Shown here piece after piece: positions 1-8,509 of a stretch of 16,319 nt of DNA (position 1 is its first letter; every line of letters begins with the position of its first letter). The translations under genes were made by a program, and so were the position numbers. The stretch spans positions 125,330 to 141,648 of the forward strand of contig JAUQVK010000025.1 of NCBI GenBank assembly GCA_039794845.1. The letters are read 5' to 3'. Under the pieces are notes generated by a model, which made no database searches, was not told the DNA's origin, and saw only the letters and a list, made by a program, of their open reading frames with translations. The stretch is from Thermostichus sp. DRC_bins_24. GTDB lineage: Bacteria; Cyanobacteriota; Cyanobacteriia; Thermostichales; Thermostichaceae.

Positions 1-1940
1 AGGTCATAGTCAAAACTCTGATTAAATCCAAGTTGCCCACCTCTAACTTTTACAGAAGCCGAAGGCTCAGTCGCTAACTTAGAGCCTATTTTGATCTGTA
101 CCCATGATGGCACTGGTCCGATCAAAAATGGTATTGTCTTTACTGGAATTTCGAATAACTGTATCTCAAAAGATATATCTAATTTCAGAATTCCATCGAA
201 AGCAATCCCTAACAATGCATTCTGTTCACCTTTGAGTGTGAAATCGAAGTGATTGAGACCAAAGTTGGGACTGAATGGATCCATTCCAAAATCCAAGTCT
301 CCAGATACCACTGGCGTAAAGTTAAAGCCTCCATAAACTTGAGCAAGAAGTTCCCGTTGAGTCCTTAATCCTGAACGCTTGAAGCGACCTTTATCACGCC
401 TAAATAGGCCCAACTCAACTCGACTGGTTGGTGTCGCAATTAATGTCCTTACAAACTGAGTGTTTCCCGGTATGGCTTGAGAATATTTTGCCTTGAGAAG
501 ACTTTCGGAAACGGGATCAACTAGAAAATAAGATAATGGACTGAATGCCAGTTTTTGAGGATCCAATTGGAAGTCAAGTTGTGAACGATTCTGAGAAGTC
601 AGATTGAGGCTGAGATCCACCTGCTGACTAAAGCTTGCTGATCCTTCCAGAATGAGATTTGAGAAAGGTGTTAGTTCAACCGTCATCCTCAAAGTGTTTC
701 CCTCCCTCTGAAGGGTCTTGATCCTCATCGGAGGGACACGCATGTCGGCTCCCACGATCACGTCATTGGGCAGTAGCGTAGGCAGGTTCTCACTATCTAC
801 CAAAATCAGGGAAAACTCATTAAGGGTTCTTGTTTCATCCTCAGGATCAAAATCAAATGCTAAAATCTGAGTCCTCTGATCCGGTAAGACCTTGACATTG
901 GGTGCAACACGTATATCTGGAGTGCTCAATGTGAAACTGACTCGATCAAAACTTGTGCGCCCATCCGAAAGCCGCACTCTAGCAGTGATCGTCTCCATCA
1001 AAGGAAGGGATCCACTGTTGTAAGTGAAGTTGGGGCCGGATCCCATGGGTCTTCCCTGATGATCTAGCCACTCAATCAAACTCGACCAATCTCTACCTTG
1101 CTCATCTACAGCTGTTGCCCGGAGTGCGACAGAAGCTCCTGTCGTTTGGGGCTGACCATCCACTTGATCTCGATCGATAATCGTTACTACTAAACCATTC
1201 GCTGGGGGCAATCCGCCTATGCCTTCGCCGCCGGTGGGTGTTGAAGTTGGAGTAGGGGGTGAGATGGGTTGTGTACCCCCGCCTTCTCCTGAAGTTGGTG
1301 GAGAGGGTGAAACGATAGGAGATGGGCTTTGTATTGGGAAAGAAGGTGCTGGAGAATCCAGCCGAGGCAGCTCAATTCCGGGAGATAAGTTACACGAGAT
1401 TTGTAAAACCCCTAGGCAAACTTGTTCTATGCTTTCAGGAGCTTCTGAGCCGAAGAGTATTCCCAAGACAATCCCAAAATCTTCAAGAGTTCCAGATATT
1501 CCGTCTCCATTAAAGTCAAAAAGGGCAACAGGAACAGGTTGAGCTGTATTGATGTCTTCTTCAGAAAGTCTGATCCCGAAAATATCGAAGATGATTCTTT
1601 GGATTTCCAATGGCGTCGCATTTGGGTTAATGATTCGTGCCAACGCAACCATGAAGTCTCTGATATTAAAAGTAATGGATTCTCCGCCGAAGGATATGGT
1701 GGCCGTATTCGTGGTTGCACCAGGAACGGTTTCAGCACTTGGCTGACCGGGAGTAGGCTGAATGGTGGGAACCCCACTCGGTAGGGAGGGGTTTGATACC
1801 GTTGGCGCTTGCGTTGCAGAAGGAGTCGAAAGAGATAGTGTAGAAGGGGATCCTCCGCCGCACCCGATTGCCAGTCCCAAAACTGAGGTCAGCGTGGGAA
1901 TCAGAATAAGCTTCTTAACAAAAAGAGCCTTGCTGCTCAC
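1..1940 (-). CDS. Large putative surface/secreted lipoprotein (>646 aa, 3' end outside the window), with Pro/Ser/Thr linkers, a DFNGDG Ca-binding-like motif, an Ig/PKD-like segment and a beta-rich C-terminal region
   Basis: My hand translation is open from GTG at 1940 to the window edge (MSSKALFVKKLILIPTLTSVLGLAIGCGGGSPSTLSLSTPS...FNQSFDYD). There is an in-frame TGA just upstream and AAGGTG 4 nt before the start. A basic N-region, a hydrophobic stretch and a lipobox-like LAIG|C are present. The ORF track misses it because there is no stop in the window. Confidence 0.85.
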   Translation of the reverse strand, partial: MSSKALFVKKLILIPTLTSVLGLAIGCGGGSPSTLSLSTPSATQAPTVSNPSLPSGVPTIQPTPGQPSAETVPGATTNTATISFGGESITFNIRDFMVALARIINPNATPLEIQRIIFDIFGIRLSEEDINTAQPVPVALFDFNGDGISGTLEDFGIVLGILFGSEAPESIEQVCLGVLQISCNLSPGIELPRLDSPAPSFPIQSPSPIVSPSPPTSGEGGGTQPISPPTPTSTPTGGEGIGGLPPANGLVVTIIDRDQVDGQPQTTGASVALRATAVDEQGRDWSSLIEWLDHQGRPMGSGPNFTYNSGSLPLMETITARVRLSDGRTSFDRVSFTLSTPDIRVAPNVKVLPDQRTQILAFDFDPEDETRTLNEFSLILVDSENLPTLLPNDVIVGADMRVPPMRIKTLQREGNTLRMTVELTPFSNLILEGSASFSQQVDLSLNLTSQNRSQLDFQLDPQKLAFSPLSYFLVDPVSESLLKAKYSQAIPGNTQFVRTLIATPTSRVELGLFRRDKGRFKRSGLRTQRELLAQVYGGFNFTPVVSGDLDFGMDPFSPNFGLNHFDFTLKGEQNALLGIAFDGILKLDISFEIQLFEIPVKTIPFLIGPVPSWVQIKIGSKLATEPSASVKVRGGQLGFNQSFDYD

Positions 1941-1978
1941 GGTACACCTTGAATAATCGAAAAGTAATCAAACAGCTT

Positions 1979-2100
1979 GCTCGCGGTTAGGCTTTGCCGG
2001 TTAAAGGTCGAAGAGCGCCCGGCTTCACACTGTCACCGAGTGGAAGCAACCGGATATGTGCCCCGACCCATCCAGATAAGGCTGTTGCATAAGCAGGAGC
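1979..2100 (-). ncRNA. Structured RNA element (candidate cis-regulatory leader or sRNA) upstream of the lipoprotein gene
   Basis: Nested pairings on the minus strand: GCTC/GAGC, CTGG/CCGG, GGTCGGGG/CTTCGACC, TCCGG/CCGGG, GCTTC/GAAGC, CACT/AGTG. It starts just after a -10-like TATAAG and ends ~39 nt before the GTG. The family is not identified. Confidence 0.5.
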
Positions 2101-2104
2101 GAGG

Positions 2105-2163
2105 CTTATATTGACATCACATTGTTAAGGCCATATGTGGCTAAGGGTTAAGCATGGGTTAAC
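2105..2163 (-). promoter_or_regulatory. Pho-box-like (SphR/PhoB) direct repeats plus a -10-like hexamer
   Basis: The minus strand reads GTTAACCC-atg-CTTAACCC (11-nt period), then a third CTTAACAA at 2129-2122, 11 nt, and TATAAG (2110-2105). This resembles the cyanobacterial PyTTAAPyPy(T/A) Pho box. Confidence 0.5.
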
Positions 2164-2165
2164 CC

Positions 2166-2185
2166 CTCAAATTGACTCAAATTGA
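2166..2185. repeat. Tandem 10-bp direct repeat CTCAAATTGA x2, each unit quasi-palindromic (TCAA-A-TTGA)
   Basis: Exact duplication at 2166-2175 and 2176-2185, directly adjacent to the Pho-box-like repeats. Confidence 0.8.
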
Positions 2186-2387
2186 TCTTGGTGGTCTTAC
2201 CTCACAAGGCCCTCCCCATCTCAGGGGTTCAGGGATCCTCTACCCGGTGAACCGCTTCGGAGTTGAGGACTTCCCCTTCAACGGCTGAGGGTTTTACCCC
2301 ATTCAGGATTCAGTCCTCCCGCTTATGTATCCAGATCCTGTTCACCGCAGGCTTAGCAACAACAAGGATTCCTCTCCGGGATTCCGT

Positions 2388-3047
2388 CTATTGCCTTAGC
2401 CAATCGAGAAGGGTTGTTCCCCCCAGCCATAGCCCCACCAAAATCGAGGTCGTCAGCAGCCCCCCCGCCACACAGATCAGGGATCCCACACCGCACAGGA
2501 TCCCATCTTCTTCCATGAGACCAAAGGCAGTGACGAAAACCCCAATTGCCGGCAGGGTGTTGGTGCCCGGAATCGGGAGGATCATCGACAGGCCCATCAA
2601 ACCAATCAACGTGCCCAGCAAACCCTGTCCCAATCGAGTCGTACACAACTGCGTCCAACGGGGGCGAGAGATTTTTTCAATGCGCCGCAACCACGGGATC
2701 CCTGCCTGCACCAGTTTCTGAAATCGATTCAATTGAACCCTTTTCTGTAGGATTCCTTCGGGCAACCAGGGGGTGGTTCGCCCCGCCGCCAGTTGAACTG
2801 CCAACAGGAGGATGAAAAAGCCAAACGGGGTGGAATAGCCGGGGGCAGGCAACGGCAACGCCGAGGGCAGAGAAAGAACCACCAGAAACAAACCAAAGCT
2901 GCGCTCACCCACCAATTTCAGAATTTGTTCAATGCAGATTGTTTCCTGGGGATCCCGAGATCCGGTTGCTTCGGGATTGGATTCCGGTTGCTCCGGGCTG
3001 TTGTGAAGGTGAGAAAACTGCGCCAGCTCTTGGGACAGACGAGCCAT
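2388..3047 (-). CDS. exoD: Exopolysaccharide synthesis ExoD-family membrane protein
   Basis: Motifs GERSFGLFLVVLSLPSALPLPAPGYSTPFG, PWLP and LPIPGTNTLPAIGVFVTAFGLMEEDG. The start is placed at MARLSQEL (3047) rather than the ORF-track start at 3152. Confidence 0.9.
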   Translation of the reverse strand: MARLSQELAQFSHLHNSPEQPESNPEATGSRDPQETICIEQILKLVGERSFGLFLVVLSLPSALPLPAPGYSTPFGFFILLLAVQLAAGRTTPWLPEGILQKRVQLNRFQKLVQAGIPWLRRIEKISRPRWTQLCTTRLGQGLLGTLIGLMGLSMILPIPGTNTLPAIGVFVTAFGLMEEDGILCGVGSLICVAGGLLTTSILVGLWLGGTTLLDWLRQ

Positions 3048-3244
3048 AAAAGGATGCAGGGTGTTGAGAGGGAGAATACCAGCAGACGGGCTCCGCACGA
3101 CCCGGAGGGCCAACGTTAGCCTACTGCAAATTCTGTTGGATATTCTGAACAAAGGGGTGGTTTTGGAGAGGTGACATGCGCAATAAGGTTGTGGCCATCA
3201 ACGGGTCTGAGATATCGAACAATCCGTATCGGCCTTTCCGAAGA

Positions 3245-3589
3245 ATGTGGGAGGTTGGCTGGGCCCTGCTGCTGGGATCCCTGCTGGTCTTCAGCGATCA
3301 GGGGGTGGTGGTTGCCGAGTTGGAGCTAGAGACGGGCACTTCCACCACCCTGCCCCCCGATGAAGCGCCACCGGTGTTGCCGCCGCCCCCCCTGGGAGTT
3401 CGACAAATTTCCGTGGATACCGACCCTGATCAAACGGCAGATATGCCCCTTTCCCTCATGGGGGAACATGTGCTGGAGGCAGTGTGTGAGGCGCAAATTG
3501 ATGCCCAGCGGGCCTTGGCTCTGATGCCGGATTTGAGTGAATCCCATATCCGCGCTGCCTGCCCGAAGCGGCTGATCCCCAAAAGCTGA
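3245..3589 (+). CDS. Hypothetical secreted/periplasmic protein
   Basis: Hydrophobic N-terminus (WALLLGSLLVF), a Pro-rich linker and two C-terminal Cys. It fills the gap between exoD and the BMP gene. An alternative start lies at 3176. Confidence 0.6.
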   Translation: MWEVGWALLLGSLLVFSDQGVVVAELELETGTSTTLPPDEAPPVLPPPPLGVRQISVDTDPDQTADMPLSLMGEHVLEAVCEAQIDAQRALALMPDLSESHIRAACPKRLIPKS

Positions 3590-3602
3590 GACCCAGGAAA
3601 AG

Positions 3603-3644
3603 GTAGCAGAGAATACGTTTAGTCCTGAGGGTGGGTGGTACTCA
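3603..3644 (+). promoter_or_regulatory. NtcA-box-like site (class II NtcA promoter geometry)
   Basis: GTA-GCAGAGAA-TAC at 3603-3616, then exactly 22 nt, then TACTCA (imperfect TAN3T). It lies upstream of the BMP start at 3679. Confidence 0.55.
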
Positions 3645-3678
3645 ATGTGTGTACCGATTTCTTCAGGGATCCCCTTAC

Positions 3679-4707
3679 ATGTCTAGGCTGCGTTTTTCTG
3701 AGCTGGGTTGGAGTCGGGAATGGCTTGCACGAGTAGCCTTCGCAATTGCCATGCTCAGCCTCTTGGTTTTGGGACGGACGACCCAAGCGCAGTCGGGCAG
3801 TGATATCAGCGGCATGAGGCTGGCCATCATTCTGGGAGGAACTGCCAACGACGGCTCTTGGAACCAAGCGGCTGCCGATGCAGGCAAAGCGCTACAGGCT
3901 AAGGGGGTAGAGGTGGCAATCGTGGAACAGATCCCGGATCCCGATGTGGAGCGGGTACTGCGCCAATATGCCGAACAAGAGTTTGACCTGATCATCGGCC
4001 ACTCTTTTAATCATCAGGATGCCGTATTCGCGGTGGCGGAAGACTTTCCGGAGGTGAATTTTTCCTGGGGTGGGGCAATCGGCCGGGTTAGCGAAAATGT
4101 CTCGGATTACGACCAGCCTTTTCACGAGGGGGCCTACCTGGTCGGGATCCTGGCGGGGGAACTGAGCCGAACAGGCCGGCTGGGGGCGCTCTACGGATTT
4201 GAAATTCCGGTTTGTAAAGCGATGGGCAATGCCCTTCTGGCAGGGGCGCAGTTGGTGAACCCAGAGGCCACCCTCACGGATGTGGCGGTGGGGGATTGGT
4301 ACGATGTCGGGCGGGCCAAAGAGGCAGCCTTGGCCCAGGCGGAAACCGGCGTGGATTTCTGGATTGGCTGCGGGCAAGGCCCCACCTGGGGATCCATCGA
4401 AGCGGCCAAGGAGGTGGAAGGCTTCAGCACAGGCTATGTGGGCAACATGACGGAACTGGGGCCCGAGGTGGTGGTCACCAACATCGTCTGGAACCTAGAG
4501 CCCACCTTCAAGCAAATGTTGATCGACACGAAAGCGGGCACCTACGCCGAGCAGTACTACTCCCTGGGGGTGGCAGAAGATGCGGTGCGGTTGGAGTTTA
4601 ACCCCGCCTTTGAAGAACGCATTAGCCCTGAAACCCTGGCCCTCTACGAAGCCACCAAAGCCAAGATCCAGAGTGGCGAATTTGAGGTGCCCTTCCAGCC
4701 CAACTAA
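3679..4707 (+). CDS. BMP-family (PnrA/NupN-like) ABC substrate-binding protein, probably for purines/nucleosides
   Basis: Motifs NDGSWNQAA, FDLIIGHSF, VAEDFPEVNF, EGAYLVGILAG and VGDWYD. The signal peptide ends in AQA with no lipobox Cys. The ORF-track start at 3631 is probably too early. Confidence 0.9.
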   Translation: MSRLRFSELGWSREWLARVAFAIAMLSLLVLGRTTQAQSGSDISGMRLAIILGGTANDGSWNQAAADAGKALQAKGVEVAIVEQIPDPDVERVLRQYAEQEFDLIIGHSFNHQDAVFAVAEDFPEVNFSWGGAIGRVSENVSDYDQPFHEGAYLVGILAGELSRTGRLGALYGFEIPVCKAMGNALLAGAQLVNPEATLTDVAVGDWYDVGRAKEAALAQAETGVDFWIGCGQGPTWGSIEAAKEVEGFSTGYVGNMTELGPEVVVTNIVWNLEPTFKQMLIDTKAGTYAEQYYSLGVAEDAVRLEFNPAFEERISPETLALYEATKAKIQSGEFEVPFQPN

Positions 4708-4803
4708 GCCAAATCCCAGGGGCCACTCTTATAAAGATCTCTTATCCTAAAAGATCAAAGATCCAGTGGCCAGGGATCCCCGAGCAACCCAAAGGTGCTG
4801 GCC

Positions 4804-5826
4804 ATGAGCGAACGGTTTCAGGATTCCAACTCTGTCCTTTTAGGGCGCGAAGCAACACTGGATCCGCTAATCCGAGGGGATTGGCATGCGGTGGTGCGGC
4901 TACAGGATTTAGAAACCCATCCTCAGCCCTTCTCCGTACGGCTGCTGGAAGAAGATCTGGTCATCTGGAAAGCGCAAGGGGAGTGGCGCTGCTGGCAGGA
5001 TCGCTGTGTGCACCGGGGTACGGCTCTGTCGTTGGGCACCGTCAAGGACTCCACCCTGATCTGCCCCTACCACGGCTGGGTATTCGATGCCGAAGGGCGC
5101 TGCATTCACATCCCGGCTCACCCGGAACAAACTCCCCCGAAGCGGGCTTGTATTCCCACCTACGCGGTGCAGGAGCGCTACGGGCTGCTTTGGGTGTGTT
5201 TAAGTAAGCCGCAACAGCCCATTCCCCCTTTTCCCGAGTGGGGGGATCCCAACTTTCGGCCTTTGTCTTCTCGGGGGTATCGCATTCGTGCCTGTGGCAC
5301 CCGCGCCATCGAAAACTTTCTGGATGTCAGCCATTTTCCCTTTGTGCACAAAGCGATTCTGGGGGATCCCGCCCATCCGGTTATTCCCGACTACCGGGTG
5401 CAGATCACCCCGGATGGGGTGCTGGCGGAAAACGTGCGGGTGTATCAGCCGGATCCCTATGGTACAGGGGTAGGAGATACGGTTTCCTATACCTACCGCG
5501 CCCTACGCCCCCTGACAGCCTATTTGCGCAAAGACTCGACGGAGCGATGTGTGGCCATTTTGCTGACCGTCACCCCCCACTCGGAGCAGGAGAGCACCCT
5601 GTGGATGTTGATGGCCATGAACTACGGCTTCGAGATCCCCGCCCAGGATCTGTTGGACTGGCAGGAGGCGATCGTGTTGCAGGATATCCCAATTGTGGAA
5701 TCGCAACGGCCCTACCTCTTGCCCCTGGATCCCCATACGGAGCTGCACTTGGCTTCCGATCAATCGGCGATCCTGTACCGGCGCTGGCTCAAGGACATGG
5801 GCCTACAATTTGGCGTTTTGCCCTGA
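4804..5826 (+). CDS. Rieske non-heme iron oxygenase alpha subunit, VanA/NdmA demethylase-like
   Basis: Rieske ligands DRCVHRG...CPYHGW, mononuclear-iron motif ENFLDVSHFPFVH, and C-terminal QDIPIVESQRP...SDQSAILYRRWL. Confidence 0.92.
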   Translation: MSERFQDSNSVLLGREATLDPLIRGDWHAVVRLQDLETHPQPFSVRLLEEDLVIWKAQGEWRCWQDRCVHRGTALSLGTVKDSTLICPYHGWVFDAEGRCIHIPAHPEQTPPKRACIPTYAVQERYGLLWVCLSKPQQPIPPFPEWGDPNFRPLSSRGYRIRACGTRAIENFLDVSHFPFVHKAILGDPAHPVIPDYRVQITPDGVLAENVRVYQPDPYGTGVGDTVSYTYRALRPLTAYLRKDSTERCVAILLTVTPHSEQESTLWMLMAMNYGFEIPAQDLLDWQEAIVLQDIPIVESQRPYLLPLDPHTELHLASDQSAILYRRWLKDMGLQFGVLP

Positions 5827-5856
5827 TTTGTTTTGTTGTTCACCCCTTCCCTACCG

Positions 5857-7434
5857 ATGCAAGTTTCCCAACGCTCTTCTACCCACACCGGCATCTCAAC
5901 AGATGCGCCCTTGGTGCAGATGCAAGGGATCCGCAAAAGTTTCGCGGGGGTACTGGCCAATGATGGGGTGGACTTTGAGCTGCAACCGGGGGAGATTCAC
6001 GCCCTTTTGGGGGAAAATGGTGCCGGGAAGACCACCCTCATGAACATTCTGGCGGGCCTCTACCAACCGGATGGCGGAGAAATTTGCTTGCGTGGCCAGC
6101 GGGTACAAATCAAATCCCCGCGCCAGGCCATTCAGCTGGGCATTGGCATGGTGCATCAGCACTTTATGTTGGTGCAGAGCTTTACGGTTGCCGATAACAT
6201 CGTTTTGGGGCAAGGCTCGTCAAGATCCGGCGAGGGAGGATCCGGCTGGCTCCGGGAGGATCCCGTACGTCTACACGAGCAGTTGCGGCAGCTGGCGGAA
6301 CAGTACGGATTGCAGGTGGATCCGGCGGCTCAAGTGGCCCAGCTCTCGGTAGGGGAACAACAGCGGGTAGAGATCCTCAAGGCCATTTATCGCGGCTCGG
6401 ATATTTTGATCCTGGATGAGCCAACAGCGGTACTGACGCCCCAGGAAGTGGAGGAACTGCTGCAAACGCTGCGGGCCTTGGCAGCTCAGGGCACAGGCAT
6501 TGTTTTTATTTCCCACAAGCTGAAGGAGGTGCTGGCTCTGTGTCATCGGGTAACGGTGCTGCGGGATGGCCGGCGGGTGGGCACGATCGCGGTGGCAGAA
6601 CACCTGCAAGCCCTGGGATCCGAGGGATGCGAACGGCTCCTGGCCCAGATGATGGTGGGTCGAGAGGTGAACTTTGAGCGGCAACCCGGACGGGAGGCCC
6701 CGCAAAGGCTGGGAGAGCCGCTCCTCACCCTCAAGCAGGTGGTGGCGCTGAGCGACCGTGACCGTCTTCCGGCTTTGCGGGGGATTGATTTGCAGGTGCA
6801 CCCGGGGGAGATCGTCGGGGTTGCCGGGGTAGATGGCAACGGCCAGCGGGAGTTGGAGGAGGTGATCGCGGGGTTACGGCCCATCCAAAGTGGTTCGGTG
6901 CAGTTCGCCGGATCGGGAGCCGTGAACCTGGCCCATATTCCGTCGGATCGCTACAGTATGGGGTTGCTCTCGGAGTTCAGCGTCGCGGAAAATGCCGTGT
7001 TACGGGATGTGGATCGGGATCCCTACTGTCGGCGCGGCTGGTTGGACTTGCGGGCAATTGCCCGCTTTGCTCAACAGTTGGTGCTGCAATTTACGGTGAA
7101 AACTCCCTCGATTCAAACGCGGGCCGGAAAACTCTCGGGGGGCAATGCCCAAAAACTGGTCTTGGGACGGGAGCTGGCGCGACAACCCCGGCTGATCCTA
7201 GCGGCCCAACCGACGCGGGGGCTGGATATTAATGCCATTGAGTATGTGCATCATCAACTGTTGCAACAACGGCAGGCGGGGGCAGGGATCCTGCTCATTT
7301 CCACGGAACTGGAGGAAATCCTGCGGCTGAGCGACCGGATCGTGGTGCTCTACGAGGGACAAATTCGCGGCGAAACCTCGGCAGAGGCGGTGGATATTCA
7401 TCAGTTGGGCCTGTGGATGGCGGGGAGAGACTAG
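5857..7434 (+). CDS. CUT2/nucleoside ABC transporter ATP-binding protein (two fused ABC domains; NupA/YufO-like)
   Basis: Walker A GENGAGKT, GMVHQHFMLV, LSVGEQQRVEI, LILDEPTAVL; second domain GVDGNGQ, LSGGNAQK, QPTRGLD. The start is ATG 5857 or TTG 5833. Confidence 0.95.
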   Translation: MQVSQRSSTHTGISTDAPLVQMQGIRKSFAGVLANDGVDFELQPGEIHALLGENGAGKTTLMNILAGLYQPDGGEICLRGQRVQIKSPRQAIQLGIGMVHQHFMLVQSFTVADNIVLGQGSSRSGEGGSGWLREDPVRLHEQLRQLAEQYGLQVDPAAQVAQLSVGEQQRVEILKAIYRGSDILILDEPTAVLTPQEVEELLQTLRALAAQGTGIVFISHKLKEVLALCHRVTVLRDGRRVGTIAVAEHLQALGSEGCERLLAQMMVGREVNFERQPGREAPQRLGEPLLTLKQVVALSDRDRLPALRGIDLQVHPGEIVGVAGVDGNGQRELEEVIAGLRPIQSGSVQFAGSGAVNLAHIPSDRYSMGLLSEFSVAENAVLRDVDRDPYCRRGWLDLRAIARFAQQLVLQFTVKTPSIQTRAGKLSGGNAQKLVLGRELARQPRLILAAQPTRGLDINAIEYVHHQLLQQRQAGAGILLISTELEEILRLSDRIVVLYEGQIRGETSAEAVDIHQLGLWMAGRD

Positions 7435-7438
7435 CTAG

Positions 7439-8509
7439 GTGCAGAGTCGGCTTCTGGGTTGGGCTGGATTGGGCAAGAGTGGGCCGGGCTCCGGCTCATG
7501 GGGATCCCGAATGGCTATGCCGCTGCTGGGGGCGGGGGTGGCGCTGTTGTTGGGGGCGCTGTTGATCGCCCTGGCGGGGCATAACCCGTTTTTGGCCTAT
7601 GGGGTGATGGTGCAGGGGGCGCTGGGTAGCCAACGATCCCTTACGGAAACGGCCCTGCGGGCCACTCCGCTGCTCATCATAGGGTTGGGTCTGACGATTG
7701 CCTTTCGCTGCAAGGTGTGGAATATCGGGGCGGAGGGGCAGTATCACCTTGGGGCCTTGGCGGGGGCGGTGGTGGCCCTGAATATGGGGGATCAACCCGC
7801 CGGGTTGGTGTTGCCACTGATGTTGCTGGCGGGGATGGCTGGGGGGTTGTTGTGGAGCGGTTTGGCGGGTTGGCTGCACCTGAAACGGGGCATGAATTTA
7901 ATCATCGTCACCCTGATGCTGAACTACATCGGCATTTTGCTGGTGCGCTACATGGCCCGTAGCCCCTTGCGGGATCCGAAGGGGTTTTTGCCGGAATCGG
8001 CCCAGTTTGCGGCGGTGGCGCGCCTGCCGCGGCTGCTCAATACGCGGCTGCACCTGGGGGTGGTGTTGGCGGTGCTCTTGGTAGGGATCCTCTATGTACT
8101 GCTGTGGCGCACTCCTTTGGGGTTTCAGTTGCGGGCGGTGGGAGCCCGCGCCAGCGTGGCCCGGACGATGGGGATCCCGGTGGGAAGAACGATTGTGATC
8201 GCCCTGTTGATCAGCGGTGGACTGGCAGGCTTGGCGGGCATCATTGAAGTCAGTACCACCATTACCCGTTTAAGGGGCACCATCTCCGACAATTACGGTT
8301 TTAGTGCCATTTTGGTAGCCTTGTTGGGGCAGCTACAGCCACTGGGGGTGTTGGTGGCAGCCTTCTTGTTCTCAGCTTTGAGTATTGGGGCAGAGGCGTT
8401 GCAGGTGCGGATGCAGATCCCGGCGGCGGTGGCTCAGGTGATTCAGGCATTGGTGGTGCTGCTGGTGTTGGCGGGAGATGCCTTGGCAAGAAATCGGGGC
8501 AACGAGTGA
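7439..8509 (+). CDS. Nucleoside ABC transporter permease (NupB/YufP-like)
   Basis: Multi-pass hydrophobic protein with WNIGAEGQ, TLMLNYI, TPLGFQLRAVG, SGGLAGLAG and YGFSAILVALLG. The start could instead be ATG 7511. Confidence 0.93.
   Translation: MQSRLLGWAGLGKSGPGSGSWGSRMAMPLLGAGVALLLGALLIALAGHNPFLAYGVMVQGALGSQRSLTETALRATPLLIIGLGLTIAFRCKVWNIGAEGQYHLGALAGAVVALNMGDQPAGLVLPLMLLAGMAGGLLWSGLAGWLHLKRGMNLIIVTLMLNYIGILLVRYMARSPLRDPKGFLPESAQFAAVARLPRLLNTRLHLGVVLAVLLVGILYVLLWRTPLGFQLRAVGARASVARTMGIPVGRTIVIALLISGGLAGLAGIIEVSTTITRLRGTISDNYGFSAILVALLGQLQPLGVLVAAFLFSALSIGAEALQVRMQIPAAVAQVIQALVVLLVLAGDALARNRGNE

Follow-up and report, generated by a model that had tools for sequence, protein, structure and literature searches.

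The stretch from 1979 to 2100 is very probably part of the 5' leader of a VWD/LRR lipoprotein gene that stands behind an activator-dependent Pho promoter, and this leader appears to work without a dedicated RNA switch. The stretch lies on the minus strand of the window (the whole stretch of DNA that was analysed, 16,319 nt from Thermostichus sp. DRC_bins_24). The new element is the predicted Pho-regulon promoter before this particular lipoprotein gene, together with what seems to be a plain, fast-evolving 5' UTR; promoters of this kind are already known. The first-pass annotation had placed the stretch between a -10-like hexamer and the start of a lipoprotein gene, and this position was confirmed. 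In the following, G000 denotes the window's own genome (3.5 Mb), and G004, G010 and G008 are relatives with orthologous loci. G000 has 16 matches to the phycobilisome family, which marks it as cyanobacterial. In minus-strand order the locus contains the following features:

2388 to 3152: ExoD-family gene (Pfam PF06055), the stop of which opens the minus-strand order of the locus
about 220 nt, in minus-strand reading: spacer between the exoD stop and the first TTAAC box
2156 to 2163, minus strand: Pho box 1, GTTAACCC, agreeing at 6 of 8 positions with the cyanobacterial consensus CTTAACCT (as given in PMC1906773)
2145 to 2152, minus strand: Pho box 2, CTTAACCC, starting 11 nt past the start of box 1, with a 3-nt linker
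2141 to 2134, minus strand: degenerate box, GCCACATA, between box 2 and the third strong box
2122 to 2129, minus strand: third strong Pho box, CTTAACAA, starting 23 nt past the start of box 2
2105 to 2110, minus strand: -10-like hexamer TATAAG, inside the invariant string TGTCAATATA
1941 to 2100, minus strand: predicted 5' UTR of about 160 nt, which includes 1979 to 2100 and the 5' end of which is placed from the -10
1979 to 2100, minus strand: the stretch under study, between the -10-like TATAAG and the GTG start of the lipoprotein ORF
1991 to 2072, minus strand: hairpin-forming core of the leader, present in G000 and G004, with 9 nt in its place in G010
1945 to 1950, minus strand: Shine-Dalgarno-like AAGGTG, 4 nt 5' of the GTG start
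3 to 1940, minus strand: first 646 codons of the lipoprotein gene, with the GTG at 1940; the ORF runs beyond the window

The lipoprotein ORF has 1681 codons in the genome contig (3 to 1940 in the window, and on to G000:C25:122224), and its product begins with a lipoprotein-type signal that ends in LAIGC. No Pfam or NCBIfam family matched the first 646 residues. The C-terminal part, which lies beyond the window, contains a VWD domain (PF00094, 47.7 bits) and leucine-rich repeats (PF12799, 58.9 bits); after residue 646 the translation has 45 X that stem from an N stretch, and that part of the lipoprotein is unread. In a protein search of 23 genomes of the family, full-length orthologs were found in G004, G010 and G008, with amino-acid identities of 84, 84 and 57 %, respectively. 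The AGGT of the Shine-Dalgarno-like site is kept in all four orthologous loci. The N-terminal region of the protein (approximately residues 60-450), which has no Pfam family, is matched by numerous separate, large ORFs from the family's other genera, in as many as 11 places in a single genome. When metagenomes were scanned with the lipoprotein, 150 pattern matches were obtained, of which none was confirmed as a relative.

The claim of a Pho-box-like promoter and of membership in the phosphate regulon, made in the first-pass annotation from the letters alone, was strengthened by the comparisons. The boxes form the string GTTAACCC-atg-CTTAACCC-tta-(GCCACATA)-tgg-c-CTTAACAA, i.e. two strong boxes in tandem, one degenerate box and one strong box that is 1 nt out of phase. 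The third strong box ends 11 nt before TATAAG, i.e. at the -35 position. A -35 consensus is absent, and a sigma-70 two-hexamer scan of 1850-2450 gave no site, as is expected of an activator-dependent promoter. The promoter leaves a phylogenetic footprint in all four orthologous loci (G000, G004, G010 and G008): TTAACC, TTAA-CC, CCTTAA and TGTCAATATA are invariant, while the spacers between them vary. According to PMC1906773, the SphR Pho box of Synechocystis consists of at least three 8-bp direct repeats with the consensus CTTAACCT and 3-bp linkers; such boxes were defined for pst1, pst2 and phoA-nucH and predicted across cyanobacteria. The repeats found here agree with that published definition.

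The layout of the boxes is also rare in the genome. The pattern TTAAYY-N5-TTAAYY-N15-18-TTAAY has two matches in the 3.5 Mb, one being the window locus and the other lying upstream of pstS, and it did not occur in any of 10 simulated first-order Markov genomes. The second match (G000:C101:58865) is followed, after 85 nt, by the ORF of a PstS equivalog (TIGR00975, 301.9 bits; cut-off 205), and the two loci have a common strong-strong-weak-strong arrangement of boxes. The sole triple tandem of the form TTAAY-N6-TTAAY-N6-TTAAY (G000:C33:21059) precedes a phnS2 equivalog (TIGR03261, 472.5 bits; cut-off 392.75), which is of the 2-aminoethylphosphonate binding-protein type. The shorter pattern TTAAYY-N5-TTAAYY had 11 matches in the genome, compared to a mean of 2.7 (maximum 5) in the 10 Markov genomes. 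With one overlapping pair merged, these 11 matches make 10 two-box loci, and for 6 of the 10 no phosphate gene could be tied to the motif: four have short unannotated downstream frames or none, one precedes a TPR protein and one a ribosome hibernation factor. The motif marks phosphate-acquisition genes (pstS and phnS2) in G000 and exceeds the simulated counts. That a phosphate-starvation Pho-box promoter precedes the lipoprotein gene is a well-supported prediction from these comparisons. By analogy with the known system, binding of SphR and induction on phosphate limitation would be expected. The strong Pho boxes at the pstS and phnS2 loci provide a starting set for describing the Pho regulon of G000.

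The surroundings of the promoter differ between the species. Synteny with G004 breaks at 2180-2386: positions 1-2179 of the window correspond to G004:C1:789566-791741 and positions 2387-8509 to G004:C1:359210-365303. For the approximately 207 nt that separate the two syntenic blocks there is neither a counterpart in G004 nor another copy in G000. In G004, G010 and G008 the place of exoD upstream of the Pho box is taken by a gene in divergent orientation, the start of which is conserved. Abutting Pho box 1, the 10-nt unit CTCAAATTGA is exactly duplicated in tandem (2166-2185, plus strand), and judged by eye it is present as a single copy at the same place in G004. Further along the window, a PnrA/Bmp-type ABC transporter operon with genes for a binding protein, an ATPase and a permease occupies 3631-8509 on the plus strand, with a gene for a Rieske/VanA_C-type oxygenase (4795-5826) interposed between those for the binding protein and the ATPase.

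The leader itself had been described in the first-pass annotation as an irregular rod of nested helices with internal loops. The pairs do exist, and at minimum free energy 2100-1979 folds into a rod of nested helices in which CACATA lies in an internal loop and CAAAG is partly unpaired. The stability of the rod is, however, at chance level. The 122 nt of G000 folded with -37.8 kcal/mol, compared to a shuffle mean of -37.7 kcal/mol (sd 3.66; z = -0.03), and 97 of the 200 shuffles were as good. The number of shuffles, among 200, that folded at least equally well was 146 for the whole G000 leader (2100-1938; z = +0.65), 51 for its 78-nt core (z = -0.60) and 59 for the opposite strand (z = -0.46). 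For the leaders of G004, G008 and G010 the numbers were 102 (z = +0.05), 100 (z = +0.05) and 86 (z = -0.11), respectively, and for the G004 core 18 (z = -1.34). The base-pairing potential of the leader is that of any sequence of like composition. A terminator-like site was not found in 1850-2450.

When Rfam 15 was searched with the whole window on both strands, a check that had been proposed in the first-pass annotation, there was no match at gathering score. In E-value mode, the sole match in 1800-2450 was to SIB_RNA with 15.8 bits (gathering score 56; E = 2.2), on the plus strand at 2111-2222 and outside the region. A likeness to an intergenic element of other cyanobacteria, which had been suggested in the first-pass annotation, was not borne out by the searches. 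When 2200-1941 was compared by blastn with 60 relatives, only G004 gave a full-length match (72 % over window 2179-1961, E = 1.7e-31). G010 was matched over 2165-2098 only, i.e. the promoter (82 %, E = 1e-11), and beyond these two genomes there were just short words (E at least 0.05). A covariance model trained on G000 and G004 was applied to an even sample of the class, 151 genomes from 80 genera with the window's own among them, and it matched its two training sequences and nothing else. A strict pattern of the core occurred at 26 places in genome_contigs, none of them titled cyanobacterium, a number that chance could give as well; G000 and G004 themselves were not among the places, as near records may be omitted by such a scan, and the result speaks only against near-identical copies in the records searched. 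A metagenome scan with the conserved promoter string led to one locus, which was AT-rich and unrelated, and to no further orthologous leaders. All genomes searched are samples of their groups. Within G000 the leader is single-copy, the best other match being 21 nt long (E = 0.41), and a repeated or mobile element was rejected on this ground. The DNA runs that contain the stretch are labelled hot-springs metagenome. None of the RNA runs was listed as containing it, and the single metatranscriptome run from the study in question had no contigs on it, a result that is uninformative about expression either way.

Between G000 and G004, 91 of the 122 aligned columns of 1979-2100 are identical and 16 are gap columns; over the whole leader 112 of 149 are identical (75 %), with 28 gap columns. 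G010 has the promoter, the ribosome-binding site and the gene as in G000, but the centre of its leader is absent. With the filters off, the model aligned the two ends of the G010 leader, with 9 nt replacing 85 model positions (12.9 bits, E = 0.099). The leader of G008 has roughly the length of the G000 leader, is unalignable and gave no model match at E of 10 or below. At 4-fold sites G004 and G010 are 69.8 % identical, compared to 66.2 % for G000 and G004 and 65.5 % for G000 and G010. With G004 and G010 slightly nearer to one another than to G000 by these identities, one deletion in the G010 line would be the simplest history of the core, and an insertion is unneeded.

The block-like absence of the core could suggest that it acts at the DNA level, as the remnant of a palindromic element or as a site for a second regulator that is gained or lost as a block. 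The core does form one indel block, flanked by the inverted repeat GGTCG...CGACC, and a contig of a related strain in run X2 leaves the window exactly at 2098, just past the -10, and is G010-like by eye. We nevertheless consider an action at the DNA level highly improbable. The core has a single copy in G000, no copies of it were found elsewhere (60 relatives, genome_contigs and the 151 class genomes), and the 4-fold-site identities favour the single G010 deletion, with no insertion required. The X2 contig is 247 nt long, derives from another sample of the same study, and matches 2098-2130 of the window, comprising the -10 and the last Pho box, before it differs; by eye its continuation resembles the short leader of G010. 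Long- and short-leader alleles may coexist in the sampled hot springs.

On neither strand does the leader contain an open frame that is conserved between G000 and G004. An antisense ORF at 1977-2114 (plus strand) was rejected as a candidate, as it is not conserved in G004, where it has stops and frame-breaking indels. A 21-codon sense frame of G000 was also rejected, being without an ATG and having an early stop in G004.

The structure of the leader was compared between the two sequences that can be aligned. With the G000 structure placed on G004, 22 of the 40 pairs were unchanged, 4 had a change on one side, 4 were compensated and 10 were broken. Differences fell on 22 of the 80 positions in paired columns and on 9 of the 42 in unpaired ones, so that pairing confers no protection. 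In the alignment 87.5 % of the cells were paired, compared to 85.1 % in shuffles, and all five measures were attained by 39 of 500 shuffles. Controls with slid partners had 0 or 1 compensated pairs compared to the 4 observed, a difference which is sufficiently explained by the structure having been derived from one of the two rows. The best-kept helix, GGUCG/CGACC, is identical in G000 and G004 and is therefore uninformative on structure. Of the inner helices, helix 6 loses 2 of its 4 pairs in G004 and helix 8 loses 2 of 5. RNAalifold, when applied to G000 and G004 together, gave a different and weaker consensus of 31 pairs, 3 of them compensated. An alternative pairing, AACAGC (2086-2081) with GCTGTT (1976-1971), had been suggested to compete with the outer stem in the manner of a switch. 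The complementarity itself is present in G000; in G004, judged by eye, one pair of it is compensated and one is broken. Homologues and covariation had been named in the first-pass annotation as the way to examine the structure; one homologue (G004) was found, and the covariation was not significant. A comparison of two sequences has almost no power; it lends the structure no support and is compatible with a lineage-specific structure.

The first-pass reading of the stretch as a riboswitch-like leader or sRNA has to be weighed against these results. According to this reading, either a ligand-sensing riboswitch or a separate small RNA, Pho-induced in the manner of PsiR1, would be transcribed from the promoter. 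The leader does lie directly behind a Pho-box promoter, and PsiR1 of Synechocystis provides a precedent, since according to PMC6596454 it has a pho-box promoter, shares one unit with the gene downstream of it and is absent in a sister strain. The reading is nevertheless exceedingly improbable. There is no Rfam family match for the leader, its homologue occurs in one sister genome only (among the 60 relatives and the 151 class genomes), its stability equals that of shuffles, its covariation is reached by 39 of 500 shuffles, and its core is absent in G010. No terminator-like site is available to end a small RNA, and the 21-codon frame, without an ATG in G000 and stopped early in G004, speaks against a PsiR1-like peptide. 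Riboswitch aptamers are conserved across wide taxa. The leader is not, and of the generic marks of a riboswitch, wide conservation and covarying helices, the searches showed one homologue and 10 of 40 pairs broken, the latter in a comparison of two sequences with low power.

A further alternative concerns the core alone. The hairpin at 2072-1991 might be a lineage-specific cis-acting RNA that tunes how the lipoprotein mRNA is translated or how stable it is, for example through alternative pairing of ACCUU, within the invariant TCTTCGACCTTTAACC, with AAGGU of the ribosome-binding site. This pairing is possible in both G000 and G004, and the stretch in question is absent from G010 (by eye). In the core, G000 and G004 agree at 68 of 82 positions (83 %), compared to 61 % (17 of 28) in the 5' part of the leader and 69 % (27 of 39) in the 3' part. 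A run of 16 invariant nucleotides includes the possible anti-Shine-Dalgarno sequence (pairing judged by eye), and both genomes retain the central GGUCG/CGACC helix. Against a plain leader in general speak the four compensated pairs of the fold. The GGUCG/CGACC helix never varies, however, and is hence silent either way, and the inner core helices are broken in G004, in 2 of the 4 pairs of helix 6 and 2 of the 5 pairs of helix 8. The stability of the core is at chance level (z = -0.60 in G000 and -1.34 in G004). G010 lacks the core and yet has the same promoter, ribosome-binding site and gene, and in the G008 leader the model found no match for it. Moreover, the conservation of the core is not above that of other G000-G004 spacers, for which the remainder of the window, in synteny with two further regions of G004, served as calibration:

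spacer of 290 aligned nt: 78 % identity between G000 and G004
spacer of 99 aligned nt: 90 % identity
spacer of 65 aligned nt, covered in part: 91 % identity
spacer of 325 aligned nt: 88 % identity
spacer of 40 aligned nt: 65 % identity
spacer of 48 aligned nt: 67 % identity

Compared to the 66 % identity at 4-fold sites of the adjoining gene (n = 275), the 83 % of the core corresponds to a binomial P of 0.0006, with the segment chosen after alignment. Pooled over nine genes of the window, G000 and G004 agree at 830 of 1232 4-fold sites (67 %). As a rule, the spacers of these two genomes also exceed the 4-fold sites, and the P value of the core thereby loses its meaning. Spacers with at least 65 aligned nt are 78-91 % identical, and the leader, with 75 % and its 28 gap columns, is at the low end. 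The identity of the core shows some constraint, which is matched by all the larger spacers of this pair of genomes. In these genomes, an identity that exceeds the 4-fold sites is no sign of a functional RNA. In view of the evidence on both sides, a lineage-specific cis-acting hairpin seems unlikely. The more specific proposal, that the core of about 80 nt is a young, clade-restricted cis-regulatory RNA which adds a second, post-transcriptional layer (e.g. masking of the ribosome-binding site) to Pho-dependent expression, is quite improbable. Should the core be cis-regulatory after all, G010 would offer a natural loss-of-element variant.

The preferred reading remains that of a Pho-dependent promoter followed by an ordinary leader. 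In the absence of a conserved fold or sequence in the leader, regulation is to be sought at the promoter and not in the RNA. When phosphate is scarce, a phosphorylated regulator of the SphR/PhoB type would, as in the known system, bind the TTAAC boxes at 2163-2122. The boxes would stand in for a -35 element, and the bound regulator would recruit RNA polymerase to the -10. Transcription from about 2100, a start predicted from the position of the -10, would yield a leader of about 160 nt, and the lipoprotein would be translated from AAGGTG/GTG without a dedicated RNA switch. The leader would evolve like ordinary intergenic DNA, and its central approximately 80 nt would have been lost in one sister species (G010). 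The leader can be set aside as a candidate for a new RNA class. The Pho box places a VWD/LRR lipoprotein of 1681 aa, present in four species of the genus, in the predicted phosphate-starvation regulon of a hot-spring cyanobacterium. This provides a testable hint of the condition under which an uncharacterised surface lipoprotein is made.

With riboswitches and the leaders collected in Rfam, the stretch shares its 5' UTR position, a potential for nested helices and one alternative pairing of 6 bp. It differs from them in having no Rfam match, a homologue in one sister genome, shuffle-level stability and no terminator-like site. PsiR1 of Synechocystis PCC 6803, as described in PMC6596454, is an RNA of about 500 nt that is induced by phosphate stress, accumulates separately and contains two similar short frames. 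Like PsiR1 in that description, the leader lies behind a pho-box promoter, is upstream of and in a unit with a protein gene, and is poorly conserved even among close relatives. Unlike PsiR1, it is only about 160 nt long, and conserved short reading frames of the PsiR1 type were not found in G000 and G004. The closest comparison is with the cyanobacterial Pho-box promoters of the SphR/PhoB type, as presented in PMC1906773. The promoter here differs from them in preceding the gene of a giant VWD/LRR lipoprotein for which no part in phosphate uptake is apparent, and in having its third strong box 23 rather than 22 nt past box 2, with a degenerate box between. It resembles them in its 8-bp direct repeats near CTTAACCT, with a start-to-start distance of 11 nt, and in the position of the boxes at -35: these lie approximately 11 nt upstream of the -10 here and, in the same source, about 10 bp upstream of it in E. 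coli.
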